DNA of 64,000 nucleotides from an uncultured Alphaproteobacteria bacterium (GCA_944389595.1 CALXMY010000001.1:169532-233531); one strand, 5' to 3'; positions 22,860 through 39,959 are shown, counted from the stretch's first letter. The notes: generated by a model not told the origin, from the letters alone. Numbers and translations: made by a program.

Positions 22860-25067
22860 ATGTTCAAAACGGGTGACGTTGTCAAAATTTTAATTCCAAA
22901 CGTTGTGAATGCGGGCTATGACTACCGATTAACCGCACCGGCCGATTTGGGAACGTTTGTCCGTGTCAGTGTAATGAACCGCCCGTATATTGGGGTTGTA
23001 TATGGGGTGGGGGACAGTAATCTGCCGCCCGAAAAAATCAAAAATACGATTGATGTTTTTCCCGAACATTTATCAGTTGCGGATTTACAGTGGATTCAAA
23101 AAATGTCCGCGTGGACATTGATGACCCCCGGCGCAGTACTGCGGTTAATCGTAAATGTGCCGGATGCTTTTTCGCCCCCGCGTATGGAACAATTATATAC
23201 TTATAACCCGGACACAAAAATTCGTATGACGGACGCGCGGCAATCTGTGGCGGACGCGTTTGCATCAAATGATAATGACGCAATGGGTGTATCTGATATT
23301 CAAAACATTGCACATGTCAGTGGCGCGGTTGTGCGTGGCATGGTTTCGCGTGGAATTTTGGTGCCAACTGGGACCCGTCGGTGTACACATGATTTTTCAA
23401 CGTATAAATATCATGATTTGGGCAATGTGCAATTAAATGCGGAACAGTCCGCCGCCGCATCGGAAATACGCAACTCGATTGATATGGGCGGCTTTTCGGC
23501 CTATTTATTGGACGGCATAACCGGCAGTGGCAAAACCCAGGTATATTTTGATGCTGCATGGCACGCATACAGCCGCGGGGAATCTGTGTTGCTGATGATG
23601 CCCGAAATCGCATTAACGGCGCAATTTATGTCGCGGTATGAAAAACGTTTTGGCGCGCCCCCTGTTGTATGGCACAGTAATTTAACCGCCGCACGCCGGC
23701 GCGAAATCTGGCGCGGTATTTTGCGTGGCGAAATTCGCATGGTTGTGGGAACGCGCAGCGCGCTGTTTTTGCCGTGGCAAAATTTGGGATTAATAGTTGT
23801 CGACGAAGAACATGACTCGTCATATAAACAGGAAGATATGGGAAATTACCACGCGCGTGATATGGCGGTGCTGCGTGCGAAAATTGCTGGTTTTCCCATT
23901 GTTTTGGCCAGTGCCACCCCATCGGCCGAAACATTGCAAAATGTGGCGGACGGAAAATATAAATGCCTGAAATTAACATCGCGTTTTGGTGGGGCATCGT
24001 TACCAAAAATCGAAACAATTGATATGCGCGAAAATCGCCCTGTGCAATATGAATTGTCAACGGATACCGATGATACACCACCGCACACGGGATTTTTATC
24101 GCCGGTGTTGTGTGATGCAATGCGTGAAACGTTGGATGCGGGACATCAAATAATGTTATTCATAAATCGTCGTGGTTTCGCCCCAATCGTTCAATGCAAA
24201 AAATGCGGATGGGTCGCCACATGTCCTGATTGCAGTGTGGGCATGACATACCATAAACATTTGGAAAAATTATTATGTCACATGTGTGGGCGAACAATGC
24301 CGATGCCGAATAAATGCCCAACATGCGGCGATGCTATTTCATATCGTGGTGCGGGCCTGGAAAAAATCCAAGAGGAAGTTACCGCCAAATTCCCATCTGC
24401 GCGCACGGCGTTGGTTTCCAGCGACACAATCATGTCGCGCCAGGCATTGGAACGCATTGTTCACAAAATGGAAAGTGGCGAAACAGACATTGTTATTGGC
24501 ACACAAATTTTGGCCAAAGGACACCATTTCCCAAACCTGACATTGGTTGGCGTGATTGATGCCGATATGGGATTGTTTGGCACCGATTTTCGTGCGGCCG
24601 AACACACGTTTCAACAATTATTCCAGGTCGCCGGTCGTGCGGGGCGCGGTGATTCGCCTGGGCGGGTGTTATTACAGACGTATCAACCGGACAATCCGGT
24701 ATTGAAATCGATATGTAATGGCAATCGCGATGCGTTTATGGCGGCCGACATGGCGGCACGGCGCGCGGCAAAAATGCCACCATATGGGCAATTGATCGCG
24801 CTGGTCATAGAGGCAAACAAAGAATCCGTATTGAAAAAATTTTGTGCCGAATTGGCCGCGCAATCACCGACGGCCGGGGGGGTAAAGATATTGGGCCCAA
24901 TTGCGGCACAAATTTATCAGGTTCGCAATTGGTATCGTATGCGATTTTTGGTTGCGGGCGATGCGCGCGCGATGCTGCAGCCATTTGTTGCGCATTGGAT
25001 TGGTAAAATTCGTATTCCGGCAAATGTTCGGGTAAAAATTGATGTAAATCCCCAAAATTTTATGTAG
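22860..25067 (+). CDS. priA: primosomal protein N'
   Basis: GITGSGKT, DEEH, Cys-rich zinc region and QVAGRAGR. Confidence 0.98.
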   Translation: MFKTGDVVKILIPNVVNAGYDYRLTAPADLGTFVRVSVMNRPYIGVVYGVGDSNLPPEKIKNTIDVFPEHLSVADLQWIQKMSAWTLMTPGAVLRLIVNVPDAFSPPRMEQLYTYNPDTKIRMTDARQSVADAFASNDNDAMGVSDIQNIAHVSGAVVRGMVSRGILVPTGTRRCTHDFSTYKYHDLGNVQLNAEQSAAASEIRNSIDMGGFSAYLLDGITGSGKTQVYFDAAWHAYSRGESVLLMMPEIALTAQFMSRYEKRFGAPPVVWHSNLTAARRREIWRGILRGEIRMVVGTRSALFLPWQNLGLIVVDEEHDSSYKQEDMGNYHARDMAVLRAKIAGFPIVLASATPSAETLQNVADGKYKCLKLTSRFGGASLPKIETIDMRENRPVQYELSTDTDDTPPHTGFLSPVLCDAMRETLDAGHQIMLFINRRGFAPIVQCKKCGWVATCPDCSVGMTYHKHLEKLLCHMCGRTMPMPNKCPTCGDAISYRGAGLEKIQEEVTAKFPSARTALVSSDTIMSRQALERIVHKMESGETDIVIGTQILAKGHHFPNLTLVGVIDADMGLFGTDFRAAEHTFQQLFQVAGRAGRGDSPGRVLLQTYQPDNPVLKSICNGNRDAFMAADMAARRAAKMPPYGQLIALVIEANKESVLKKFCAELAAQSPTAGGVKILGPIAAQIYQVRNWYRMRFLVAGDARAMLQPFVAHWIGKIRIPANVRVKIDVNPQNFM

Positions 25068-27695: not shown

Positions 27696-27727
27696 AATCC
27701 CCCGCGTTATGCGGGGGATTTTTTTTT
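27696..27727. terminator. intrinsic terminator at the left edge of the phage-like cluster
   Basis: AATCCCCCGC-GTTAT-GCGGGGGATT followed by a T run. Confidence 0.8.
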
Positions 27728-27992
27728 AATTTGTTTTTATAACTGCACTTTTTATTAATGCAATATCTTCGCGTATAGTATCTATTTTAATTTGTATTTG
27801 GCCCAATCCGGTTTCCAATATTGTTGTACGGTTTTCCAATGACGTTATACGATTATTTGCGCGCGCCAAATCATCCAGTGACGAATCCTGGCGGGCGGCC
27901 CAATATATTACCCCCGCAATAAACGCAATCAGAAACCAACTGTTACGCAAAAAATCCAAAAAATTCATTGGGCCATATGGTCGAGTTGTCAT
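27726..27992 (-). CDS. small single-TM/coiled-coil protein (holin/XhlA-like accessory)
   Basis: One TM helix then a coiled coil; last gene of the portal operon. Confidence 0.55.
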   Translation of the reverse strand: MTTRPYGPMNFLDFLRNSWFLIAFIAGVIYWAARQDSSLDDLARANNRITSLENRTTILETGLGQIQIKIDTIREDIALIKSAVIKTN

Positions 27993-28183
27993 TATTTACC
28001 CCGTTCAATCAGGCTTTCTATTTGGTGAACCAATGCGCGTTGGGCCTCGATTCCGCGCAGTTCAGCATCTGTTGCGTTCGGGCCAACTGTGCGTTCAATG
28101 GTTATTTTGCGCAAATGGCGCATAACCGCCGCGCCGGATGCACTTAAAAAAGTACGTGCATAATTTTGTTCTAATTCCTTCAT
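27992..28183 (-). CDS. Bbp19-like phage protein
   Basis: YARTF....GAAVMRHLR......ELRGIEAQRALV pattern; located directly after the portal, as in podovirus head modules. Confidence 0.75.
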   Translation of the reverse strand: MKELEQNYARTFLSASGAAVMRHLRKITIERTVGPNATDAELRGIEAQRALVHQIESLIERGK

Positions 28184-28200: not shown

Positions 28201-29424
28201 TTATAATATTGTTTCCGCCACCGCCATTTTTGTGATTGGTGCGATATATTTTAATTCCGCATCACTGTGCAATGATATTTTGTCGATAATTCCACGTCGT
28301 GATAAAATTTGTAACCCACGTTCCACCAACGGATGTATAAATTCATGCAGTAATCGTCCATATGTTGCGCCCAAAATTCGCATCATATCCGCATTACGTG
28401 CCAATATTTCCGTGGCGGTCATTTCTTTTTCACTTAACAGTCCCAATCTGTCGGCCAGTAATGTATGCCGAATGCGTTCGCGTAAATCTTTTAATACAAT
28501 TTGTGATACGTCAAAATTTGCGCCCGACGACAGCGGTGTCAATCCCGATGACCCAACGGCCTTTGGTATAATTGCACCCGGCGTTAAATTGATGTTTGAC
28601 AGATTAATAACCCCGTCATCATCGGCCTGCCATATGCCCGATACCGCAATAGTTGCATTTTTCAGCACCAATTCCACGACTTTGTTCGCGGTTTTTATAT
28701 CAGGCAATGCGCGCAACACCGGTCCGCGTCCGTATTGTTCGCCACTGGCCACGGACCACCGGAATATAATGTACGGATTTGTTTCAAACTTTCCCGTGGA
28801 CACGATATTATTTTCAATGTCGCCACCAACATCCAACCATGCCGTGAAGTCAGTCCCAATCAACGATTGCACCAATCGCAATGGTGTATCTGGGTTGTTT
28901 TTTATTGTGTCGCGCATATCAGACGGTGGTGTCCATGATGGGTATTTTTCCATTACTTCGTATGCGGGCATTGTTGCCGTATGAAACACTGCGCCCGGCA
29001 ATACGGCAATATCATGCATTGGAATCGCAGTAAACGAAAACGCAGATGCTGCGCCAATTGGATTTTCTGCCATAAACAGACATGCTGTACCCAATACGAT
29101 TAAATCCATATAGCATTGATGAATTGTTGTATAAAAATTAGAATCGTTCAAATTTGCGCGTAATGCCGCTGTTGCGGCAATCGCATCGGGTGATTTTTCA
29201 CTTTCGGGCACCAATGATAACCATAATGATTCCGGTGGTGTTAACAGTGTATAAATTGATGCGGCCAAATTGTCCGCGGCATCCGATGCGGTTGCATCAA
29301 ACAGTGTTGCAACATCGTTGTCTGATGTGGGAACAGTATATCGCAGTGCACTGTCCCAGCGTGCAATCCATGGTGCGCGCATGTCCAACGCACGGCGATA
29401 CATTTGTTGCAAATTATATTTCAT
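28201..29424 (-). CDS. portal protein (T7-like head-to-tail connector family)
   Basis: LFDATA..AA..LAA, LGTACL, RW....GE.YGRGP...ALPDIKTAN and MTATEI..R motifs. Confidence 0.92.
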   Translation of the reverse strand: MKYNLQQMYRRALDMRAPWIARWDSALRYTVPTSDNDVATLFDATASDAADNLAASIYTLLTPPESLWLSLVPESEKSPDAIAATAALRANLNDSNFYTTIHQCYMDLIVLGTACLFMAENPIGAASAFSFTAIPMHDIAVLPGAVFHTATMPAYEVMEKYPSWTPPSDMRDTIKNNPDTPLRLVQSLIGTDFTAWLDVGGDIENNIVSTGKFETNPYIIFRWSVASGEQYGRGPVLRALPDIKTANKVVELVLKNATIAVSGIWQADDDGVINLSNINLTPGAIIPKAVGSSGLTPLSSGANFDVSQIVLKDLRERIRHTLLADRLGLLSEKEMTATEILARNADMMRILGATYGRLLHEFIHPLVERGLQILSRRGIIDKISLHSDAELKYIAPITKMAVAETIL

Positions 29425-29447
29425 GATTTTAATCTCCCTTGGTTTTC

Positions 29448-30296
29448 TTATATTTTGAAATCGGTATTTGCTGAAAATAACTTCTGGTTAAAACCTGTTG
29501 GATGTACGGGTATCGGCATGGCGCATATTGCGCCCGCCAACGCATCCAATCCGTCATCGTGCATGCCACCACCAATCGGGGCCCAGCCCAACATTTCTGA
29601 AATCAGTGGGGTTGATTGTATTCGCACATGCGCATACATACGCCCAGATGTCAGAATCGGTTCAATGGCATCCAAAATCCTGGTTTCTTTGTTTTTTGTG
29701 TTTGTAATTCTGTTTATGGTTATTGTCATATTGCGGTGTGTTGATACATCGCGCATAATTTCTGGCAGTGCGTTTCCGATACCATTTGTTTCAATACTTA
29801 TTCGACGTATACCGTGATGGGCCATAAAATTTAATACTGTATCACATTGTCGTGCCAATGGATGTAATTCGTCGTCCGAAACCAATAAATACAGCACATC
29901 ATGAATAAATACGCATCTGTTTTTATCATCGCGGTACAATAATACGCATACGCTGCCATCAGAATTTTTATGTCCTGTGGATGGGTCCCAATAAATTGTG
30001 GCACCTGTAATCTTTGTGTTGCCAATTCGTGCAGTTCGTGCATCAAATTCCCCATTATACAGATGCAATGCGTCTGGATCCAAACGCGCCCTGTCAGGGG
30101 CGATAAAATCCAACATCATTTGTGCCGAAAAATATCGTGTGCCAACCATATCGCGAATTTCATTAATGCGCGTAATTGGAAACATTTCTGGCCACACGGG
30201 TTCGCCATCTGCGGAAATTATGGGAATTTTTAATTCACGATATCCGCGTAAAAAAGGCGTTGAAAAACTAAAATTTTTATATACCATATCTGACAT
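29448..30296 (-). CDS. terminase large subunit, C-terminal nuclease half
   Basis: PFL...WPEMF, FSAQMML, YWDPS, IETNGIG, KETRI and HDDGLDALAGA; GGGG SD on the minus strand inside dnaB codons. Confidence 0.85.
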   Translation of the reverse strand: MSDMVYKNFSFSTPFLRGYRELKIPIISADGEPVWPEMFPITRINEIRDMVGTRYFSAQMMLDFIAPDRARLDPDALHLYNGEFDARTARIGNTKITGATIYWDPSTGHKNSDGSVCVLLYRDDKNRCVFIHDVLYLLVSDDELHPLARQCDTVLNFMAHHGIRRISIETNGIGNALPEIMRDVSTHRNMTITINRITNTKNKETRILDAIEPILTSGRMYAHVRIQSTPLISEMLGWAPIGGGMHDDGLDALAGAICAMPIPVHPTGFNQKLFSANTDFKI

Positions 30297-31851
30297 GGAC
30301 TTTACCCCAAAGACTTTGCCAACAAATTTAGAGGCCGAACAGGCCGTTTTGGCCGCGGTGTTAATGAATAACCGTGCGCTGGAACGTGTGTCCGAATTTT
30401 TGCGGGCGGAACATTTTTCGCATCCTGCACACCAGGAAATTTACAAATTGGCCGAACGGCAATTTGCCGCCGGAATACCGTTTGATATCATCACCGCCAA
30501 AAATTATTTGGATCAACAGGGCGTATTGGAATCCGTGGGCGGTGTGGAATATTTAACCCAATTGGCATCTGCGGGCGCGACGGTTGTTAATGTTGAACAA
30601 TACGGTCGTATTGTTTATGAAAACGCGATGCGGCGCGAATTGATAAATTTGGGTCAATCCATAACCGATGCCGCATTTGTCGAGGATTTGGATAATCCTG
30701 TTTCCGCGCAAATCGAAACTGCCGAACAAAAATTGTTTGAAATGGCATCGGCCGGTGTTTCTGAACGTGATGTTGCATCAATTGGCACCGCGTTACAGGA
30801 TGCATTAAAAGAGGCCGAAATCGCATACAAGGCAGATGGCCGATTATCTGGTTTAACAACCGGATTAAACGCGTTGGATAAATCAATCAGTGGTTTGCAT
30901 CACAGTGATTTAATTATTATTGCCGGCCGTCCTGCAATGGGAAAAACAACATTGGCAATGAATATTGCGTTTAATGCGGCAAACGCGATTCAATTCGGGC
31001 GTGCAAATGAACGCTATCGCGGGGCGGTGGTATTTTTCAGTTTGGAAATGTCAAAATCTCAATTGGCGGCGCGCGTATTGTCATCGCAATCTAAAATACC
31101 TGCATCCGCCATGCGCGAGGGTTCATTAACCGACGAAGATTTTTTGAAAATGTCCCAATATGCGGACGCAATTGGCAAAGTTCCATTATTTATTGATGAT
31201 ACACCCGGGATGTCAGTGCCAATGATTCGCACCCGTGCGCGCCGTTTGGCGCGAAAATGCGGCGGTATCGCATTAATTGTGATTGATTATTTGCAATTAA
31301 TGACATCGCCCGGTGGCCGGAACAAGGATAACCGTGTCCAGGAAATATCTGAAATCACACGTGGGTTAAAAATGTTGGCCAAGGAATTGGATGTTCCTGT
31401 TATTGCATTGTCGCAATTGTCGCGCAGTGTCGAATCACGTGATGATAAACGGCCCCAGTTATCGGATTTGCGTGAATCGGGTTCAATTGAACAGGATGCT
31501 GATATTGTCATGTTCACCTATCGCGAGGAATATTATCTGGAAAACCGTGATCCGTCACAGCGTATTTCCGGTAACGCAAATGAAAAAATAATCGAAAGTT
31601 TTCAAAAGCGGTTGGAGCGCGCACGTGGCAAGGCCGACGTTATAATCGGTAAAAACCGTCATGGTCGCCCGGAAACTGTTCATTTGGCATTCTTTGGCGA
31701 TTACAGTTTGTTTGATAATCTGGATGAAATGAATGCGCGTGGTGAAAATGATTTTGGTAATGTGCCGCCCGCACAATCAATTCCGGATGATGGCGAAATG
31801 GAACCAACACCAATTGATGTTGATGCGATTCCGGACGATATGCCACTGTAA
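30295..31851 (+). CDS. dnaB: replicative DNA helicase
   Basis: Start MDFTPKTLPTNLEAEQAVL; AGRPAMGKT, FSLEMS, IDYLQL, LSQLSR and DLRESGSIEQDAD. Confidence 0.96.
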   Translation: MDFTPKTLPTNLEAEQAVLAAVLMNNRALERVSEFLRAEHFSHPAHQEIYKLAERQFAAGIPFDIITAKNYLDQQGVLESVGGVEYLTQLASAGATVVNVEQYGRIVYENAMRRELINLGQSITDAAFVEDLDNPVSAQIETAEQKLFEMASAGVSERDVASIGTALQDALKEAEIAYKADGRLSGLTTGLNALDKSISGLHHSDLIIIAGRPAMGKTTLAMNIAFNAANAIQFGRANERYRGAVVFFSLEMSKSQLAARVLSSQSKIPASAMREGSLTDEDFLKMSQYADAIGKVPLFIDDTPGMSVPMIRTRARRLARKCGGIALIVIDYLQLMTSPGGRNKDNRVQEISEITRGLKMLAKELDVPVIALSQLSRSVESRDDKRPQLSDLRESGSIEQDADIVMFTYREEYYLENRDPSQRISGNANEKIIESFQKRLERARGKADVIIGKNRHGRPETVHLAFFGDYSLFDNLDEMNARGENDFGNVPPAQSIPDDGEMEPTPIDVDAIPDDMPL

Positions 31852-31918
31852 TTATTTTCTGCTTGCCAATTCTGTTTATTTTGACTAAAATTTTGTCAAG
31901 AAATTCAAGGAGATTGCG

Positions 31919-32923
31919 ATGGCCCAAGAAGAAATAATTTTCCCAAATAATATCAGAAACATTCGTTTGGCCAACGGCATGAAAATGACCGAATTGGCGC
32001 GCCAGGCAAATTTATCTTTGTCGGCGGTTTCAAAAATAGAAAAGGGCGTACGCCGTCTGAATCAAAAACAGTTATTAAATATATGTAATATATTGGGCTG
32101 TAAATTATCAGATATTTTTATCAAGGAATCTGATGATGTTGCCGCACAATGGCAAAATGAAATCAAACGTCGTTTGACCGATAACGAAGATAACGGTCTG
32201 AAAATATTTGGCAGTGGTCTGCGCAAAATTCGCCAACAAACCGGTAAAACCATCGCCCAGGCGGCATCTGATGCGGGTATGACATTGTCCGTTTATCACA
32301 AGATAGAGGTTGGCCAACGCGAGATATATGAAAATGAAATTGAACCATTGGCAAAATCATTTGGTTATACCACAAATACATTGTTGGATAAAATTGCCGC
32401 ATTGTACAAGGCCGGCGAATTAACCAAACAAATAAATAAAATCCAGGAACGTGTAAAATCTGTATTGGTTCCGGGTAATCCAATGTCTGGTATTGACCAC
32501 AGCAGTTTATTCGGTGCCAAATTATATGACAGTGCACGTAAAAAATTGGTGCCTGTGTTTGGTGTACCATCTGGAAAAACAATCGCGTTTAAAAAATCTG
32601 ATAAAACAATGGTTGTCGCGCCGATTCCACTAGAAGGCCGCCAGGGCATTTACGCAGTTCGTCCAAATTCAAAACGTTTGGGTGGTTATATTCCTGAAAA
32701 ATCCTATGTTTTTGCGGATTCAGAAACCCCCGCATCGGTTGGTGATTTGGCGGTGTGTATCGATGCTGATTTCAATGCGCTGGATTCGAACGAGGTTGTT
32801 AATGCACAAATTGTCAGTGTTCGTTCCGATTCCAAGGGGCGTATTTATGGGCAAATTTCTTCGCCCGAAGAAAAAGTTACCGGCAAAACAATGCATCGTG
32901 TTATAATGATTGTTATGGAATAA
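31919..32923 (+). CDS. XRE-family regulator with two HTH domains
   Basis: NNIRNIR...ELARQANLSLSAVSKIEKG and GLRKIR...AGMTLSVYHKIEVG; C-terminal domain starts with VPVFG (CI-like). Confidence 0.85.
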   Translation: MAQEEIIFPNNIRNIRLANGMKMTELARQANLSLSAVSKIEKGVRRLNQKQLLNICNILGCKLSDIFIKESDDVAAQWQNEIKRRLTDNEDNGLKIFGSGLRKIRQQTGKTIAQAASDAGMTLSVYHKIEVGQREIYENEIEPLAKSFGYTTNTLLDKIAALYKAGELTKQINKIQERVKSVLVPGNPMSGIDHSSLFGAKLYDSARKKLVPVFGVPSGKTIAFKKSDKTMVVAPIPLEGRQGIYAVRPNSKRLGGYIPEKSYVFADSETPASVGDLAVCIDADFNALDSNEVVNAQIVSVRSDSKGRIYGQISSPEEKVTGKTMHRVIMIVME

Positions 32924-32946
32924 TCCGCCACCGCAGGAGGGGGAAA

Positions 32947-33621
32947 ATGAAAGCAAAAGCCAGTACCATTGCGCAAAAACTGTTAAATCTGTATCGCCAG
33001 GAACATGTAATTTTTGGTGGATGGGCCGCCGTAAATCAGGTGTTCGTGGACGAGGCAGATGATGATGTTTTGCGTGCGTTGCGTGATTTACCAACCGGGA
33101 AAAATCTGGTTCGGCACATAGAAAACCTGCGTTCTGGTAAAACCCCAATGGATTCCATAAATCATGAATTGTTGCCATATGGTGGCATGATGGATAAAAC
33201 AATCGCGACCGTGCCATTGACAGACGATGAATGGCGGCAATTGGAATCCGGAATTGATGAATTCACCACTGACCAGGATGGTTTGAACCGAATTCAACAA
33301 TTGCCCGTTATAAAAAAATTTGGTGATCAATGGTTGGTTGCAATTCGTGCGGCATTATCAAAACGTCCTGAATTATTGGAAAAATGGTCAATTGTTAATA
33401 AAACATATCGGGCGTATTATTTATGGAAGGTCGCCAGTGATATGTTAAATCAGCCACTAACCGAACGTGCACGTGCACAATTACAGGTCGATATGCCAGA
33501 ATATGAAACGTATTTACCAATGTTCGGCGATGCCGGAACGGAATTATTGGAAAAATTGCGTTCTTTTATTTCGACAATAAAGCCTGTGGATGAAAACAAC
33601 GGTGATAATTCCGCATATTAA
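32947..33621 (+). CDS. hypothetical protein
   Basis: 224-aa ORF with strong GGAGGGG SD; its stop codon abuts the terL-N stop. Confidence 0.8.
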   Translation: MKAKASTIAQKLLNLYRQEHVIFGGWAAVNQVFVDEADDDVLRALRDLPTGKNLVRHIENLRSGKTPMDSINHELLPYGGMMDKTIATVPLTDDEWRQLESGIDEFTTDQDGLNRIQQLPVIKKFGDQWLVAIRAALSKRPELLEKWSIVNKTYRAYYLWKVASDMLNQPLTERARAQLQVDMPEYETYLPMFGDAGTELLEKLRSFISTIKPVDENNGDNSAY

Positions 33622-34221
33622 TCATTCATGGGTACGATATATTGTATCCATTGTATGCGGGGTGCCAATGTAAATCATTGTACCATTGGGCGATAAAATA
33701 AAATCTAATTCGCGCAATCGTTCACGCAGATTTTCACGTTTTTGTGCGGTATTACTGGTGTTTGGTACCTCTATGTCATCGCATATAATTAAATCAGACC
33801 GCATACCTGTAATATTACCATGGATACCCTGGCATATAACGGATGGTTCGCGTATTCCAATTGGGCGATTTACTGTTATACGATCGTGCGCCCATTCTTT
33901 TTTAGTTGCCGGAATCAAATCTTTGCACATTGGATGATTTTCCAGTATATGTCGAATATGTGTGACCATTCGTGCCGCCAGATTATTTTCGGCCGATAAA
34001 ATTAAAATTCTGGTTGATGGATTCATGCGTAACACACACGCGGCAAATATTCCAACAACAGTCGATTTACCCGAATGCCGAAATGCCATTAATAATCCAC
34101 GATGTGGCGGTGTGGTCCATATTGATACCAAAAATTCCATAATAGTACGGTGATGTGCCGGTGTCCCCAGCCCCAGCACATCATTCCATGCATCCAAAAA
34201 CGCATAAAAATCATTTACCAT
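33622..34221 (-). CDS. terminase large subunit, N-terminal ATPase half
   Basis: P.HH, Walker A LLMAFRHSGKST, ITG.RSDLIICDDIE (Walker B) and YIGTP coupling motif, then a stop. Confidence 0.88.
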   Translation of the reverse strand: MVNDFYAFLDAWNDVLGLGTPAHHRTIMEFLVSIWTTPPHRGLLMAFRHSGKSTVVGIFAACVLRMNPSTRILILSAENNLAARMVTHIRHILENHPMCKDLIPATKKEWAHDRITVNRPIGIREPSVICQGIHGNITGMRSDLIICDDIEVPNTSNTAQKRENLRERLRELDFILSPNGTMIYIGTPHTMDTIYRTHE

Positions 34222-34229
34222 TGTTAATA

Positions 34230-34577
34230 CTAACCAACCAAATCATCAAATTTATCTAATATTGTTTGTAATAAATTTGGCCGTTTAGCCCGTGTATTAC
34301 GCAGTTTTTCAATGTTTGATTTACGTTTTTCGTTGTATGGTTCCGCTGTTTCCGATGCCAAACGTTTTAATACCGCGCCTGTGGACATGCTGCGCCCGGA
34401 AACCCCGGATGCACCATATTTTGCGCGCTGTGTGGCCAATGTTTTTTTTACCAAATTTGTTTTTTCACGTTCGTCATTTGCCATATCGGCCAATATTTTT
34501 TGGCGTTCGTTTGCGGCCTCTTTTTTTGAATCACGATAATTTAATATTGATGTAACATCAGATACTAATTGTCCCAT
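34230..34577 (-). CDS. putative internal virion/ejection-like protein
   Basis: Helical; QRAKYGASGV motif typical of podovirus internal proteins; follows the tail nozzle gene. Confidence 0.55.
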   Translation of the reverse strand: MGQLVSDVTSILNYRDSKKEAANERQKILADMANDEREKTNLVKKTLATQRAKYGASGVSGRSMSTGAVLKRLASETAEPYNEKRKSNIEKLRNTRAKRPNLLQTILDKFDDLVG

Positions 34578-34595: not shown

Positions 34596-36311
34596 TTATA
34601 CAATATAATAGCCATATGTCGTAATTGATAACACAGTTGCACGGAATTGTTCGGTGCTGGAAATTGTCCATGGTGCATTTGTACATGTACGTTGGCATCC
34701 CATAAAGTTTATGCATACATCGCCGGTATACCCGTTTGATTCAGAATCGTATATATCATTTGGCAGCGATGCACGTTCGCCATTTATAAAAATAGTTTTT
34801 GTATCCGAAATTCTGGCAACAATTTTTCGTATGCGCAGCATGTGTGCATTATGGCCCGATGCACGCATCGGTAATGCCGCCGCGGTATATGAAAAATCAT
34901 ATTGTTCGGCATCGCGTATGGCATCGTCTGAAAATCTTTCCAAATAATATTCGTTGCCACGCGCGACAACGACATATGTTTCATCGCCGGTTGTGGCCAC
35001 TGATTTGAATTGTCCATTTGTCGTATATCGTGCCCATGCAGAAATGCCCAATGCAGAATTTTGATTTAATACCGCCATATCGCCATTTGACATAACAACA
35101 AACAGTTGTCGGATTGCGGGGTTATATGATAAATCCACCGGATTATGCATCAAATGTTTGGCCTGGGTACACAAATCGCGCGCATTATAATTTTCGCCCA
35201 ATGCATCCAACGATAATTCGCGAATGTCCTTTTGTGTGTTTGATATAAATACAGTTGCGCCCTCTATTTTTTGTGGTGGCAGATATCGTGTCGTCACACT
35301 GCCCACGGATGTATGTTGTTTTATGTCAACATTTGACGGTGTTAACGGTTTGCTGGAAATTGCCCATTCACCGGCATTAGTTAATATTTGCAGATTATCA
35401 CTGCTGACAACTGTACATATTTCCTGGCGTTGTTGGGATAACAGTGTTAAAAATATTGCTTCGTCGTCCAATCCGGTGCCGGTATCAAAGTTATTATGAT
35501 GCCCAACACGGGACATCCAAATTCCGCCGGGCCATTCGCGCGAACCGCCAAACACTAATCTGTCCTGGTGAAATGTGATGCTGCATGGCCATCCACGACG
35601 TGCACTGAATGCGGATTCATACCAATCTGTAACAGGCGAGGGCGGAATGTTATATTGTTTGTTCGTATATGCATATATGACGGTCGGGCTGATATATTTT
35701 ACAATTTGCCATTGATTGTTCAGCAACATCAACTGGCCGCCAACACAATTTTGCGTCCAAAAATCTTGGTTAGTGGTAAATGTGGCATAGTTATTACCGT
35801 AACTGTTTGGTGTGACTGTAATTTTAATATCTTTTGAATCGTCAAAGCGCATAAATGGGATATTGATGGTCATATCGGCATCGTTGCGTTCAAATTCAAA
35901 TGGAATTAAACTAAATATATCATCAGATTTTTGCAATATTTGTGGTTGATAATCTGGGTGTACAAAAATCATAGTACCAAAACGTTGGGCATATTGTAAT
36001 TTTGGTAAATCATCAACATCCCATGGCGACATCATATCGCGTATGCGCGTGGTGCCATCATATATCATAAAGTGCCCATCGGTCAGAACAATTAAATAAT
36101 TTTCCGTATTCCCCATAGAGAAAGGAATTAATCGCGCCACAGAATTCAGTTCCGCGACCGATTCCAATCCGCGTCGCCGTTTTAATCCACCGCCGGCCAT
36201 AACATCCATATTTTCCAATTTTGATAATCCATTTAAATTATCGTGCGCAAAAAATTCTGGGGACACTTCGCCATCAGCAAAAGAATTTTGAGTCTTTATA
36301 AAATCGGCCAT
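34596..36311 (-). CDS. tail tubular protein B (nozzle, T7 gp12-like)
   Basis: QNSF..GEVSP, GG..RR.G, F.QDRL.FGG and AW.RY motifs. Confidence 0.85.
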   Translation of the reverse strand: MADFIKTQNSFADGEVSPEFFAHDNLNGLSKLENMDVMAGGGLKRRRGLESVAELNSVARLIPFSMGNTENYLIVLTDGHFMIYDGTTRIRDMMSPWDVDDLPKLQYAQRFGTMIFVHPDYQPQILQKSDDIFSLIPFEFERNDADMTINIPFMRFDDSKDIKITVTPNSYGNNYATFTTNQDFWTQNCVGGQLMLLNNQWQIVKYISPTVIYAYTNKQYNIPPSPVTDWYESAFSARRGWPCSITFHQDRLVFGGSREWPGGIWMSRVGHHNNFDTGTGLDDEAIFLTLLSQQRQEICTVVSSDNLQILTNAGEWAISSKPLTPSNVDIKQHTSVGSVTTRYLPPQKIEGATVFISNTQKDIRELSLDALGENYNARDLCTQAKHLMHNPVDLSYNPAIRQLFVVMSNGDMAVLNQNSALGISAWARYTTNGQFKSVATTGDETYVVVARGNEYYLERFSDDAIRDAEQYDFSYTAAALPMRASGHNAHMLRIRKIVARISDTKTIFINGERASLPNDIYDSESNGYTGDVCINFMGCQRTCTNAPWTISSTEQFRATVLSITTYGYYIV

Positions 36312-36326
36312 AATAATCCCCCTGTG

Positions 36327-36848
36327 TTAAAATCGTGCATTTATTAATGAAAAGTTATTTATACGGTTGTCTGGGTTTGATGCAGTGCTGTCAATAAATT
36401 TTGCAGATTGTAATTCGCTTTCATACAATGCGGCCAACATGCGGAATACAGATTGATCGCCGGTCAATGGTATACAAAATTCCATCGCCAATTTTGTTGC
36501 AACCAATGATGAAAAATACGCCGGAAACTGTTGTGCATCAATACGTATAATCGCAGTTATGGAAATTGTATCATTGTCTGATATAATTCTGTTGCCAACT
36601 ATATTTCCGCCACATCGTAACACGCGCAGGCATTCACCCGGAATTATAAAATTGCCGTCGGTGCTTTTTGCCAAATCAAAATGTTTGCATGCAAATCGCC
36701 ACGGATGTGATGCCAATAATGTATCAACAACTGGATTAAACAGTGTTCGCGACAATTGCGATGCAGGATTATCATCGTTCAATGATTGTATTGGCTTTTC
36801 ACCCAATTTTAATAACGCCATTGAACATAAATCGATTTTTGTTTGCAT
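36327..36848 (-). CDS. tail tubular protein A (adaptor, T7 gp11-like)
   Basis: IDLCSMAL..LG..PI.S...LL..HPWRFA, FP.YF...LA and A..IDS motifs. Confidence 0.85.
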   Translation of the reverse strand: MQTKIDLCSMALLKLGEKPIQSLNDDNPASQLSRTLFNPVVDTLLASHPWRFACKHFDLAKSTDGNFIIPGECLRVLRCGGNIVGNRIISDNDTISITAIIRIDAQQFPAYFSSLVATKLAMEFCIPLTGDQSVFRMLAALYESELQSAKFIDSTASNPDNRINNFSLINARF

Positions 36849-36906: not shown

Positions 36907-37137
36907 TTATGATAAGGCAGCAACAGAAACATTCGTTGAATCAACAGAAATTTTTTTAATTGATGTGTTGTCAGAACCGTTGATTATTATAATGTCCCCG
37001 GTGTTCATCAATGTTTTTACACTGTTAAAATATCCCGATGTACTGATTGTCGCCAATGTTTCCGATGCAGCATAATGCCACAATGTAAATCCATTTGCGT
37101 ATGCAATCACAGATAAATTTTTATTTTGAAACGCCAT
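36907..37137 (-). CDS. small capsid-associated (decoration-like) protein
   Basis: MAFQNKNLSVIAYANGFTLWHY...GYFN...GD.I; sits between the capsid gene and its terminator. Confidence 0.7.
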   Translation of the reverse strand: MAFQNKNLSVIAYANGFTLWHYAASETLATISTSGYFNSVKTLMNTGDIIIINGSDNTSIKKISVDSTNVSVAALS

Positions 37138-37183
37138 TTGATTTGTTCCTTTGGTTGTTTTGGTTGAACTTGATGTCAATCGA

Positions 37184-38014
37184 CTATTCCGTTTCATCTG
37201 AATCCTTGCATTTAATTCTTACGATACCATCGGCATCAATCATAACTGCGCCCTGGGACATGCTGTTGCTGATAAAGTGCGCCGCACGTTCACCATGCCA
37301 CGAGATATCTGTTTTTACCTCTTGGCCACATGCGTGCCCGATACTGGTTGCGTGATACATAAAACAATCGCGATTAGTTCCGGTCAACGGCAAATCGTTA
37401 TACAACACCCATGTAATCCCCAGCCATTTTTTTGATGCGCCACCGGAAATCATCGGCAAATTATCGCCAACATAATCCGCAGAAACAAATTCGTCCATTG
37501 ACAATAATTCGTTCCATTGATGTACGCCAACAACCGCAAATCTGCGGCCGTCATCCGGCACATCATTTTGATTCAACACTTCCAATGCAGATAAAATTAA
37601 ATCTTTGCTAAGTCCGGTTGAATAATCGCCGATTGATTTGGTTGCGCCGTTCATTGCGGATACAATCAATTCATCGGTTTTGCGGCCCAGTGCATATGCG
37701 CCGGCCGATGCAACCACACGACGTTCATCAACGTTTGTTTTTAATTCATCCAATGCATCAACCCAATCACCTGCATAATAATCTTGTAATACACATTCAA
37801 CAGGTTCATGATTTAAATTCATAACTGGTACAATACCATGACGCGATTTTGTGCTGGCGGTGCCACGTCCAACTTTTTGAAACGTAGTGGATGCCCCAAC
37901 AACGCCGGATTTACTGCGCACGGTGGCGCGTAATTTTGTGCCCATTTGTTGATATGCCAAATGAACGTCGGCCTCGAATTGTTTTATAAAGACCTGGTCA
38001 ACTGAAACAGACAT
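37184..38014 (-). CDS. major capsid protein
   Basis: FIKQFEADVHLAYQQMGTKLR, WVD.LD.LK, AYALGRKTD and S.GA..ID..G, characteristic of podovirus-type capsids in alphaproteobacterial clusters. Confidence 0.88.
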   Translation of the reverse strand: MSVSVDQVFIKQFEADVHLAYQQMGTKLRATVRSKSGVVGASTTFQKVGRGTASTKSRHGIVPVMNLNHEPVECVLQDYYAGDWVDALDELKTNVDERRVVASAGAYALGRKTDELIVSAMNGATKSIGDYSTGLSKDLILSALEVLNQNDVPDDGRRFAVVGVHQWNELLSMDEFVSADYVGDNLPMISGGASKKWLGITWVLYNDLPLTGTNRDCFMYHATSIGHACGQEVKTDISWHGERAAHFISNSMSQGAVMIDADGIVRIKCKDSDETE

Positions 38015-38225: not shown

Positions 38226-38579
38226 TTATTTTCTTTTTGCACATGCTTTTTTAGCAACCGGCTTTTTCGCGGCCACTTTTTTCGCAGGTGCTTTTTTAGC
38301 AACTGGTTTTTTAGCTGCGACTTTTTTTACAACTGCTTTTTTAGCAACTGGTTTTTTTGCAGCAACTTTTTTCGCAGGTGCTTTTTTAGCAACTGGTTTT
38401 TTTGCAGCAACTTTTTTCACAGGTGCTTTTTTAGCAACTGGTTTTTTTGCAACGACTTTTTTCGCAGCAGGTTTCTTCGCAGCAGGTTTTTTCACTGCCG
38501 GTTTTTTTGCAGCCGGTTTCGCCGCTGGCTTTTTCGCAGCAGGTTTCTTTGCAGCTGGTTTCAAGAATGTGAATGCCAT
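38226..38579 (-). CDS. histone H1-like Lys/Ala/Pro-repeat protein (HctB/AlgP-like)
   Basis: [17 protein letters not shown]...([14 protein letters not shown])n; AAGGAG SD; own terminator at ~38197-38222. Confidence 0.88.
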
Positions 38580-38683
38580 TCTTCTCTCCTTTTTATTTTT
38601 TGGATAGAACAAACTTTTTTGTTCTTACTTACATTTTATACGAAAGAAAAAAAATAGTAAAGGAGAAAGTGCATTTTTTTTTA

Positions 38684-39340
38684 TTACGAATATAATTTTT
38701 TAAAACCATTTTCAATTTTGCGAACGTATTCTGGATCATGATCACGCCAATATTTTGGATCACGCATCATGCGTCGCAATTCATCATCAGTTAAATTTTT
38801 TGATGCCACATCATCTGTTTGAACATGTGGTTCCATTGATTGCATCATTGCATATACGCTGCGGATTCCCTGGGGTGTGGCGCACAGTGCATCAAACGCA
38901 TCACGTGGTAAATATTTTTCGCCGAATGCATTTATTGCAATTAATGCTTCGCGCATTTTATCACTGTCCCCGAAAAAATTTTTTAATTCATTTGTTGCAT
39001 TTGTTTCATCTTGGGCATCAAACAATTCTGATAAAACAGGTTTCAAATATTCTTCGGCAATTTGATAAATTTTTTCAACCTGTGTTTTTGTCAGTCCCAT
39101 TTCAAAAAATTTTTCACGAACCGAATCGTCATCAAATAATTTATTTTCCGGATATTCCGATGCAGACATTGGTACGCCAATTGCATGATTAAACTTTGCG
39201 CGCGCATCTGCGTCCGCGTTTTCATCAGGCACAGAAATCATCGTTCCGATTTTCTTTTCCAATGCAGCATACGATTTCAATAATGCGTCAGTATTTAATG
39301 TTCCGTCTTTATTCAGAAATTTTTCTGGAATTTTCTCCAT
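38684..39340 (-). CDS. capsid assembly/scaffold protein
   Basis: MEKIPEKF...DALLKSY.ALEKK, GLT..Q and M.DPKYW..DP motifs; upstream of the capsid gene. Confidence 0.8.
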   Translation of the reverse strand: MEKIPEKFLNKDGTLNTDALLKSYAALEKKIGTMISVPDENADADARAKFNHAIGVPMSASEYPENKLFDDDSVREKFFEMGLTKTQVEKIYQIAEEYLKPVLSELFDAQDETNATNELKNFFGDSDKMREALIAINAFGEKYLPRDAFDALCATPQGIRSVYAMMQSMEPHVQTDDVASKNLTDDELRRMMRDPKYWRDHDPEYVRKIENGFKKLYS

Positions 39341-39530
39341 TTGTTTTTCCTTTGGTTTCGCTGGATTTGCGCAGAAAATAAATTCCGCCAAATGTAAATA
39401 TTGATTGCAGCATTGTAAATACATCTGTGTCACCAACCAGATACGCACCGATTGATGATAATATTCCAATGCCTGATATAATGTATGTTCTGTGTCCGGC
39501 CAGAAAACCGCCACTGATAATTTTTTGCAT
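39309..39530 (-). CDS. holin-like small membrane protein
   Basis: G.RTYI motif, two hydrophobic segments, FLR and a basic tail; coupled to the cell wall hydrolase gene. Confidence 0.6.
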   Translation of the reverse strand: MQKIISGGFLAGHRTYIISGIGILSSIGAYLVGDTDVFTMLQSIFTFGGIYFLRKSSETKGKTNGENSRKISE

Positions 39531-39548
39531 TTTGTAATCCGTTTTGTT

Positions 39549-39959
39549 TTACAGATAAAACAATAATCCATCTATGTCGGCAATATAACCACGCGATATT
39601 GCCCATGCGGGTATTTTACAATCGCGATGAAAACGTGTGGCCCCATAACAACAATCGGGCAGGCCGCCGTGTAACATACGTGTCGCAACGCGAACACACA
39701 TTTGCATTTCGCGATTATTTATTTCCACATTATTTAAATGATGATTGCGTGACGCGGGATTTATTGATTCGAATAATTCTGTATCAGACACAACATCATC
39801 AATTGTGCGGCCGGTTGCGATTGCATTATTTTTTATCATTGATGTCAGTGCTTCGACCACACGCAGTGATGCCGCACATGTTTCCGCATATACAACGCGT
39901 GCAATTTTATATGCAATCCGTTGTGAACTGTCCGGATTTTTTATCAATATTAATTTCAT
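39549..39959 (-). CDS. SleB-like cell wall hydrolase (Hydrolase_2), divergent
   Basis: IARVVYAE (catalytic Glu position), LPD...GAT.FH, P.WA and I....FY. Confidence 0.75.
   Translation of the reverse strand: MKLILIKNPDSSQRIAYKIARVVYAETCAASLRVVEALTSMIKNNAIATGRTIDDVVSDTELFESINPASRNHHLNNVEINNREMQMCVRVATRMLHGGLPDCCYGATRFHRDCKIPAWAISRGYIADIDGLLFYL

Follow-up and report, generated by a model that had tools for sequence, protein, structure and literature searches.

The large terminases rank with the most powerful molecular motors known, and they are regarded as enzymes of one chain and two domains. We describe here a large terminase (TerL) that is encoded as two genes, terL-N and terL-C, in a stretch of 64,000 nucleotides (nt) from an uncultured Alphaproteobacteria bacterium (GCA_944389595.1 CALXMY010000001.1:169532-233531; hereafter the window, with positions counted from its first letter). 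Both genes lie within a cluster of T7-like head, tail and packaging genes and are separated by dnaB, xre and orf224 on the opposite strand. The organism probably belongs to Candidatus Enterousia of the order Rs-D84, and the closest loci stem from metagenome-assembled genomes of the chicken, ruminant, mouse and human gut. In the accessible part of a description that places Enterousia in this order (PMC12306168), the genomes are smaller than 1 Mb (~0.9 Mb) with ~90% coding density and the lifestyle is probably partner-dependent; the host genome of the window (G000) has 935 kb and is 97% complete. We consider it probable that the two genes specify a two-chain terminase within a vertically inherited podovirus cluster resembling a gene transfer agent (GTA).

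The T7-type TerL proteins (T7 gp19, 4BIJ; PhiV-1, 8DGC) carry the same ATPase motifs and the same RNaseH-like nuclease as the pair described here, and the portal, scaffold, capsid and tail tube genes around the pair are likewise of T7 type. In contrast to these enzymes, the terminase of the window consists of two polypeptides cut inside the ATPase domain, is in total ~100 amino acids (aa) shorter than gp19 (586 aa), and belongs to a chromosomal, vertically inherited cluster rather than to a phage genome. By sequence comparison, its true nearest relatives are the unsplit TerL proteins of ~490 aa in other Alphaproteobacteria, which show 42-53% identity to terL-N and 26-35% to terL-C and have the same neighbouring genes. 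The order in these clusters is portal, a small open reading frame (ORF), scaffold, capsid, a 96-aa ORF, tail tubes A and B, 2-4 kb of further sequence, terL and a hydrolase; terL is a single ORF, the arrangement is canonical, fibre and holin included, and, unlike at our locus, no interleaving with dnaB or ftsZ occurs in the ten loci examined. The cluster of these class relatives spans ~11 kb (L064-L073; e.g. L067:7772-18639), is present in 56 of 397 sampled genomes, and ends in one locus with a GTA-type holin (PF11351) flanked by cellular genes, while IMG/VR lists such clusters of isolate genomes mostly as 'viruses' of 9-19 kb. It may be a widespread podovirus-type GTA-like element, and we found no paper that describes it.

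Split genes for essential enzymes have precedents in phages. NrdA of Aeromonas phage Aeh1 is reportedly split by a homing endonuclease, an arrangement that Friedrich and colleagues are said to have described in 2007 as 'genes-in-pieces'; the enzyme is likewise cut within a domain, into two ORFs that presumably reassemble non-covalently. At our locus, by contrast, the gap holds dnaB, xre and orf224 and no homing endonuclease, a whole bacterial order and not a single phage shows the split as a fixed trait, and reassembly is predicted. Separate coding sequences for terL also occur in the Jug phages (PMC12880540), in Twort (PMC13729910) and in phiPDS1 (PMC10773633). According to the accessible parts of these reports, introns split the genes of the Jug phages and Twort, splicing restoring one ORF in the former, whereas phiPDS1 has two coding sequences for which the authors suspected an issue of codon table or assembly. 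Our locus differs from the intron-split genes in that it has no intron signal and in that its split is conserved and under selection. These three cases were the only split terminases that turned up in the open-access literature (main text, supplements excluded), and the same body of text yielded nothing on this cluster in connection with Enterousia, Rs-D84, GTAs or T7-like prophages, and no description of a conserved two-chain cellular terminase; the accessible part of PMC12306168 contains none of the terms 'phage', 'terminase', 'capsid' and 'gene transfer agent'.

GTAs such as RcGTA, BaGTA and the podovirus-like FpGTA of Faecalibacterium are, as far as the available part of PMC12946183 goes, likewise phage-derived clusters of structural and packaging genes. 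They lack replication and integration genes, none of which Pfam or PHROGs recognised among the assigned ORFs of our cluster, and they share with it that they co-diverge with the host and that some of their parts are encoded elsewhere. The cluster of the window differs from them in having T7-like rather than HK97-siphovirus structural genes and in its split terminase. An earlier note on this DNA had proposed a GTA-like setting, and a vertically inherited, selected cluster of structural and packaging genes agrees with that proposal. The two terminase genes are as follows.

33622-34221, minus strand: terL-N, 199 aa, matching Pfam Terminase_6N (E 1.8e-6)
29448-30296, minus strand: terL-C, 282 aa, matching Pfam Terminase-T7_RNaseH-like (PF22530; E 4.2e-9)

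Together, terL-N and terL-C are a T7-type large terminase encoded as two genes. terL-N contains the ATPase core through motif III and stops 11 residues past GTP; it is 36% identical to residues 16-212 of K1F gp19, and its profile spans residues 18-211 across T7 gp19 (4bij_A, E 2.9e-35) and the TerL chain of PhiV-1 (8dgc_E, residues 19-211, E 1.6e-36). Across the order, residues G51 K52 S53, D148 D149 E151 and G186 T187 P188 of terL-N are invariant (n = 15 relatives), as are D104, E169, N171, D247, D248 and D251 of terL-C (n = 14 relatives) and, at its N-terminus, P25, W35 and F39. The three terL-N groups we take to be Walker A, Walker B with the catalytic Glu, and motif III; terL-N thus has the ATPase motifs of the additional-strand, catalytic-E (ASCE) class that mark a TerL, while terL-C supplies the RNaseH-like nuclease with its conserved acidic residues (fold matches of Z 13-17). 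The catalytic residues of both halves, whose motifs had been noticed intact in the window itself, are unchanged across six families. What sets the enzyme apart is that ATPase and nuclease do not share one polypeptide: all 69 complete loci encode two ORFs, and so do five other families.

The two halves align end to end onto their unsplit nearest homologues, which have 468-499 aa (8 complete ORFs) compared with 199 + 282 = 481 aa here. An impression that 50-100 residues were missing, gained from comparison with the TerL of T7 and of Piluca phage, was gone once these ~490-aa homologues had been found, and the earlier suggestion that nothing was lost at the break holds. The break falls in a hydrophilic, variable loop, which has 5-22 residues in the unsplit proteins and lies between ...TIY and PFLxG... 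The same note had placed it in the linker between ATPase and nuclease; this placement has to be revised. Solved nuclease domains (P22, T4/RB49, Sf6, G20c, P74-26, HK97 and herpesvirus) align to residues ~66-264 of the AlphaFold2 (AF2) model of terL-C (predicted local distance difference test, pLDDT, 82), and residues 260-539 of PhiV-1 TerL (8dgc_E) align to residues 34-276 with Z 17. Since the solved nuclease domains reach no further than ~66-264, the modelled first ~65 residues of terL-C are assigned to the remainder of the ATPase domain, namely one strand and the lid helices, followed by the RNaseH-like nuclease. On this model the break lies inside the ATPase fold.

When modelled as a complex, as the earlier note had recommended, terL-N and terL-C are predicted to dock, with a score of 0.88 against 0.01 for the best control; at least 92% of contacts were common between runs and the partner pLDDT was at least 77. 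Of 80 solved complexes, 58 reach the threshold applied; of 110 mismatched pairs, 2 do. These figures are a rough guide here since our own alignments were used. The predicted contacts of lowest error join terL-N 41-47, the strand just before Walker A, to terL-C 19-26. The strand order of ASCE ATPases is 5-1-4-3-2; in the model, terL-C 19-26 would take the position of strand 5 beside strand 1, and the cut would lie between strand 4, which carries motif III, and strand 5. Docking of this kind suggests that the pieces still fit the TerL fold, which is a different matter from binding in the cell. It also bears on the idea, put forward with the first description of the split, that cutting had been separated from translocation: because terL-C holds ~65 residues of the ATPase domain and is predicted to pair through them with the terL-N strand before Walker A, the two activities would not be uncoupled.

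We regard it as improbable that the halves now act independently of each other, one (terL-N) as an ATPase and the other (terL-C) as a nuclease, each with a new and separate role. The strand and lid needed to complete the ATPase fold are missing from terL-N; both are conserved at the N-terminus of terL-C (P25, W35, F39), and the predicted interface uses precisely those residues. Both halves also remain within the structural cluster and tend to be kept or lost together: among 16 genomes of other families, 11 have both, four have neither and one has terL-N alone, an all-or-none pattern that fits one functional module. Separate roles would, in turn, account for the genome that keeps terL-N without a detectable terL-C (G029), for the unlinked halves of family f3, which lie 3.5-7.5 kb apart, and for the faster evolution of terL-C (mean pairwise distance 0.40 versus 0.25 for terL-N).

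The split is old. Strong terL-N matches (n = 38) were found in 37 of 41 related genomes, and all of them lie in open frames of 198-228 aa. Besides the genome of the window, the 37 are all 24 genus-mates and 12 of the 16 genomes that represent five other families. In the 15 of these genomes from which 19-kb stretches were examined, terL-N ends 1-17 codons past the conserved GTPH...TIY segment (1-5 codons in 14 loci; the terL-N of G030 has an internal TAG), and terL-C starts shortly before PFLxG..LKIP in the 14 loci that hold it, or at the end of this segment in G027; the copy of G035 is cut by the end of the stretch. Ten of ten genomes of the five other families show the same break, and none has dnaB between the halves. 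Five of them (G028, G032, G025, G027 and G030) have the halves 175-550 nt apart, with no same-strand ORF of at least 50 aa in the spacer, the opposite strand and degraded remnants lying outside this search; the gap of the four f3 genomes contains the portal gene and ftsZ. terL-C is present in 110 of 121 genomes of the order, its frame never exceeding 412 aa, and the layout of the window is shared by five of five genus-mates and by a further genus (G077). Outside the order, the 56 genomes of the class with a terL-N homologue (35-53% identity) have it in frames of at least 399 aa in 55 cases. Two candidates for a second, independent split in the class were discarded, as the 230-aa frame of G319 is an artefact of a run of Ns and the 399-aa frame of G190 is cut by a contig end. 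Judged from these comparisons, the terminase split dates to the ancestor of the order Rs-D84, and the alignment to full-length homologues proposed at the outset thus ends in a split kept across the order.

To assess selection, we used 80 loci found with a terL-C profile. Sixty-nine of them have the full layout of terL-N, then orf224, xre and dnaB in antisense, then terL-C; nine have a partial layout and two carry scaffold or capsid genes directly upstream of orf224, while 11 of the 80 are cut upstream by a contig end. Ratios of non-synonymous to synonymous substitution (dN/dS; median pairwise values after Nei-Gojobori, from pairs with dS of 0.05-1.5) were 0.12 for terL-N and 0.18 for terL-C, compared with 0.07 for the portal, 0.06 for dnaB, 0.08 for xre, 0.21 for orf224, 0.23 for the small ORF p115 upstream of terL-N, and 0.10 for tail tube B, all of them rough values given a median dS of ~1.3, which is near saturation. 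The distances of terL-N and terL-C track those of dnaB (rho 0.76 and 0.82), a descriptive measure only, as the genes are linked. By these measures, both halves are under purifying selection.

This pattern argues against a decaying prophage remnant, in which the two ORFs would be functionless fragments of a dead terminase gene. At near-saturated synonymous divergence, every one of the 69 complete loci retains an intact terL-N (197-214 aa) and an intact terL-C (275-314 aa), their catalytic residues do not vary, and genomes of ~0.9 Mb with ~90% coding density, as the accessible part of PMC12306168 gives them, would not retain 9 kb of junk throughout an order. Decay would account for the apparent lack of replication and integration genes, of a recognised small terminase (terS) and of internal core proteins in the cluster, and for the relatives in which terL-N, terL-C and capsid, or terL-C alone, are missing; on balance we consider it unlikely. 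With the halves intact, selected, invariant in their motifs, kept or lost together and predicted to dock, the natural two-chain terminase that the earlier note had proposed is supported.

The three genes between the halves are listed below.

30295-31851, plus strand: dnaB, replicative helicase (Pfam DnaB, E 3.5e-31; DnaB_C, E 4.9e-101)
31919-32923, plus strand: xre, with two helix-turn-helix domains (Pfam HTH_3 in two stretches, E 4.2e-19)
32947-33621, plus strand: orf224, an all-helical conserved protein of 224 aa, always downstream of xre

All five ORFs lie where the earlier note had placed them, and its question whether this is the only dnaB of the genome can be answered in the affirmative, the gene being the sole DnaB_C match in the 97%-complete G000. 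Its view that the dnaB block split the terminase has to be abandoned, because the same break occurs in other families with a short spacer or with ftsZ and the portal gene in its place. The dnaB genes of five other families show 41-55% identity to that of the block, are single-copy and lie elsewhere; in the four loci examined there the flanks differ, so that no common chromosomal home is apparent, the exception being a 723-aa neighbour in G028 that has an orthologue at window position 22860-25067. The presence of dnaB in the gap is secondary, because dnaB lies elsewhere in those five families and the xre-orf224 pair is order-wide. From this distribution, dnaB reached the gap later than the split and only in Enterousia and close genera, and to that extent alone is the insertion conserved among relatives. 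Two variant layouts were seen: in genus g14 (G087, L039) dnaB is inverted and hence on the same strand as terL, and genus g11 (G050, L036) has additional DNA of 2.5 kb and 3.3 kb separating terL-C, dnaB and xre.

orf224 is present in 117 of 121 genomes of the order and gives an AF2 model with pLDDT 80; it has no match in Pfam or PHROGs, no usable match in the Atlas and no fold match in the PDB at E <= 0.001. As a lead only, xre could have a CI/LexA-like architecture with an S24 peptidase-like C-terminal part, as its residues 160-334 score 0.93 to Peptidase_S24 clusters in an Atlas features search. Four family-mates without a match to terL-N, terL-C or capsid keep orf224, and in two of them the stretches fetched show either the xre-orf224 pair or the complete dnaB-xre-orf224 block. 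Since orf224 is kept where the phage genes are missing, the pair appears not to be simply a regulator of the phage cluster. The same genomes speak against the proposal that an essential gene inside the cluster protects it from deletion: family-mates without cluster matches retain block genes, and other families keep the cluster without dnaB in it. Family f3 has two or three paralogues of orf224 in tandem, at a distance of a few kb from terL-C.

Both ends of the block are flush in the window. At the 5' junction, the start of terL-C (CAT, 30294-30296) and the ATG of dnaB (30295-30297) overlap by 2 nt as CATG, and at the 3' junction the TAA of orf224 (33619-33621) abuts the terL-N stop (TCA, 33622-33624) with zero bases between. 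The description of a block without spacers is therefore accurate for the window; the precise insertion that it seemed to imply is not borne out, as the offsets differ among species. Of 69 species, 48 keep the 2-nt overlap of start codons; in the remainder the starts are separated by 19-31 nt (in 19 species), by 54 nt or by 269 nt. The two stops overlap by 4 nt (offset -4) in 34 of 69 species and abut (offset 0) in 2 of 69, the range being -64 to +92 nt, and the other intergenic gaps of the cluster are 8-67 nt. Because the junction offsets vary in this way, flushness is best attributed, on comparative grounds, to genome compaction and not to the footprint of a precise insertion.

An assembly artefact or chimeric contig has hardly any chance of explaining the arrangement. 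The genome is a metagenome assembly, and Logan contigs of several runs break near 30250-30310. The layout nevertheless recurs in 69 of the 80 loci, whose species and studies differ from those of the window; three further studies supply contigs (X1 record 3, X10 record 13 and X8 record 29) that bridge 33621/33622 between orf224 and terL-N, and X1 record 2 bridges 30295 between terL-C and dnaB with a short side of 45 nt. The misassembly of which the earlier note had warned is thereby excluded.

Nor do we expect the halves to be rejoined before use, be it by excision of the DNA, by cis- or trans-splicing of RNA or by a split intein, which we judge very improbable. Splicing by a group I intron is known to restore a split phage terL (the accessible part of PMC12880540), and the tight junctions at our locus would fit such a process. 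However, Rfam at its gathering threshold returned only tRNAs in the window and in five spacer loci of relatives, and the flush junctions leave no space for an intron structure; the ORFs have no intein-sized extension, the halves summing to full length without extra residues. Excision would delete the sole dnaB, and in family f3 it is the portal gene and ftsZ that lie between the halves. The three genes of the block include no recombinase, and there are no direct repeats at the junctions: the sole pair flanking the block, 28 nt at 75% identity (12 nt exact) and situated 70-200 nt inside the two halves, is at chance level. No contig in four runs skips 30295-33621, so that the excised junction suggested as a check was not seen, a weak point in itself because contigs drop rare variants.

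The start of dnaB coincides with a candidate promoter.

30260-30287, plus strand: candidate dnaB promoter, TTGAAA / 16 nt / TACCAT, within terL-C codons 4-12

This match ends 7 nt before the A of the dnaB ATG. It comes from a promoter and terminator scan that was at chance level overall (15 and 9 sites versus 16.1 and 7.7 expected); the block itself is almost invariant at the nucleotide level (55 genomes; window 30255-30296). Synonymous sites of terL-C codons 11-15 are nearly fixed, with a top-codon share of 0.90-1.00 compared with 0.39-0.57 for equally conserved residues further in, and no comparable conserved block exists in the first 90 codons of dnaB. Such constraint suggests that a promoter is probably embedded in the first codons of terL-C and that the dnaB mRNA is leaderless or nearly so, which would account for the overlap of the two starts as well as for the conserved 'VYKNF' stretch containing TATAT. 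The likeness of DTIYR and DMVYK on the two sides of the block, which share an in-frame TATAT, had already been pointed out; it is better explained by nucleotide constraint from the probable dnaB promoter.

The evidence can be combined into the following scenario. In the ancestor of the order, a terL of ~490 aa would have been cut in a variable surface loop just after motif III of the ATPase, leaving terL-N with Walker A, Walker B with its catalytic Glu, and motif III; terL-C would have received the beta-strand that follows, the helices of the lid and the complete RNaseH-like nuclease. Strand complementation, with terL-C 19-26 pairing with terL-N 41-47 as in the model, would reassemble the chains into an ordinary TerL that translocates and cuts DNA, and the cluster would make DNA-filled, GTA-like particles. 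Later, the cellular set dnaB-xre-orf224 would have entered the gap in Enterousia and close genera, while a short spacer or ftsZ and the portal gene are found there elsewhere; compaction would then have produced the flush junctions, with dnaB starting leaderless from a promoter within the first codons of terL-C. Of this scenario, the anatomy, phyletic pattern, selection and motif conservation are shown by the data, whereas reassembly, activity, particle formation, GTA function and the promoter are inferred.

Several observations weigh against it. In Enterousia, terL-C lies head to head with dnaB and has 3.3 kb of antisense genes upstream, and no promoter signal for terL-C was recognised, dnaB codons 1-90 holding no conserved block and the scan being at chance. 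There is likewise no evidence of expression, a point that also favours decay: the sole RNA run (X5) amounts to 39 short contigs of low depth, many of them 5-10% diverged and possibly derived from DNA, and contigs cannot show transcription; they leave 29255-29705 without cover and 29706-30156 with little, although a hole in contigs proves nothing. The docking pass is a model result to be expected for the halves of any split gene, and the score may reflect memory of solved single-chain TerL structures. Near-saturation of dS blurs the estimates of selection. Neither a small terminase nor T7-like internal core proteins were recognised by Pfam or PHROGs. Finally, the four family-mates without terL-N, terL-C or capsid matches are 95-98% complete, and no terL-C was found, even by profile search, in G029 (family f6, 99% complete), where terL-N, the portal, tail tube B and a capsid of 67% identity are present; either this lineage is in decay or its terL-C was left unassembled.

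The terminase genes sit in a cluster that reads, in order, endolysin-like hydrolase, scaffold, 128-aa ORF, capsid, 96-aa ORF, tail tubes A and B, p115, terL-N, the block, terL-C, portal and two small ORFs. Its parts are as follows.

39959-27726, minus strand: the whole cluster, a T7-like podovirus remnant of ~12 kb
39549-39959, minus strand: cell-wall hydrolase, endolysin-like (PHROG endolysin, E 3.5e-7; Hydrolase_2, E 4.6e-4, below the Pfam cut-off)
38684-39571, minus strand: T7-type scaffold (Pfam Phage_T7_Capsid, E 2.1e-10)
38226-38612, minus strand: 128-aa ORF
37184-38014, minus strand: major capsid protein (Pfam Phage_capsid_2, E 1.4e-72; PHROG major head protein, E 2.7e-73)
36907-37197, minus strand: 96-aa ORF
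36327-36848, minus strand: tail tubular protein A (PHROG tail protein phrog_394, E 4.2e-33)
34596-36311, minus strand: tail tubular protein B (PHROG tail protein phrog_376, E 3.2e-84)
34230-34577, minus strand: p115, a basic protein directly upstream of terL-N, syntenic in relatives
28201-29424, minus strand: portal of T7 gp8 type, 23 nt downstream of terL-C (Pfam Head-tail_con, E 2.2e-77)
27726-28183, minus strand: two small ORFs of 63 and 88 aa, syntenic with the portal in relatives

We regard this as, in all likelihood, a domesticated T7-like cluster, comprising genes for head, tail and DNA packaging, that gut Alphaproteobacteria of one order pass on vertically: its genes are found in six families, have dN/dS values of 0.07-0.23 and show distances that correlate with those of dnaB. 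Pfam and PHROGs detected no integrase, polymerase, primase or RNA polymerase family among its ORFs and, more generally, no genes for replication, integration or lysogeny, with the qualification that small ORFs are unassigned and that the CI-like xre lies within the cluster. p115, which matches no family of Pfam or PHROGs, occupies the slot expected for a small terminase and is a candidate by position; the 88-aa ORF matches phrog_736 (E 7.6e-4). A lone tail-fibre-like gene of 299 aa (G000:C1:249749-250648; L154:4749-5648) is located ~40 kb from the cluster and ~16 kb past the right end of the window, between an ATP-binding cassette (ABC) transporter and other cellular genes; its N-terminal domain matches phrog_2710 (E 8.9e-10) and also the fibre gene that adjoins terL in class relatives. 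In a phage collection, the best named relative of the capsid is a Pelagibacter podovirus (43% identity), terL-N is matched best by T7-like phages, with 38% at most, and the only nine matches of terL-C are all below 30%. Two unannotated records from human faeces filed as 'Bacteriophage sp.' (MT838907.1 and MT835812.1) match the capsid at 62% and dnaB at 50%, and may represent misfiled pieces of Rs-D84-like bacterial chromosomes.

A cell-division gene accompanies the cluster elsewhere in the order. ftsZ lies between terL-N and the portal gene and terL-C in four of four loci of family f3 (L019:13884-15596, L021:11639-13321, L022 and L026), where in one genome (G026) it is the only FtsZ_C match, and it is found within a few kb of the cluster in families f5 (L017:5065-6009) and f2 (L025:17129-18133). 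The phage-derived cluster thus seems to have an old chromosomal home beside ftsZ, with lineages interleaving it with different single-copy cell-cycle genes. FtsZ_C (PF12327) was detected in none of 19 genomes of the genus, G000 included, compared with 10 of 12 genomes of other families and 13 of 14 control genomes, and a tblastn search of G000 with the FtsZ of family f3 gave no match at E 1e-5; Enterousia may divide without FtsZ.

What makes the finding more interesting than an insertion is that a whole order maintains, under selection, a terminase encoded by two genes and cut within its ATPase fold. As a caution, a striking 'insertion' can be secondary, and the order of events is revealed only by comparing relatives. 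A motor cut inside its ATPase fold, with both pieces selected throughout an order, offers a system to probe how ATPase core, lid and nuclease communicate, and bears on the building of split or engineered packaging motors. A more far-reaching version, which as a whole we consider rather unlikely, would make the locus an order-wide, new podovirus-type GTA with an obligate two-chain motor, interleaved with dnaB in Enterousia and with ftsZ in family f3, and with the dnaB promoter inside terL-C. If this were true, particle production could be tied mechanically to the expression of replication and division genes, via head-on transcription or shared control regions, and partner-dependent bacteria with genomes of ~0.9 Mb would have a route for recombination. 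Should particles be made, they would represent a new type of GTA in common members of animal and human gut communities.

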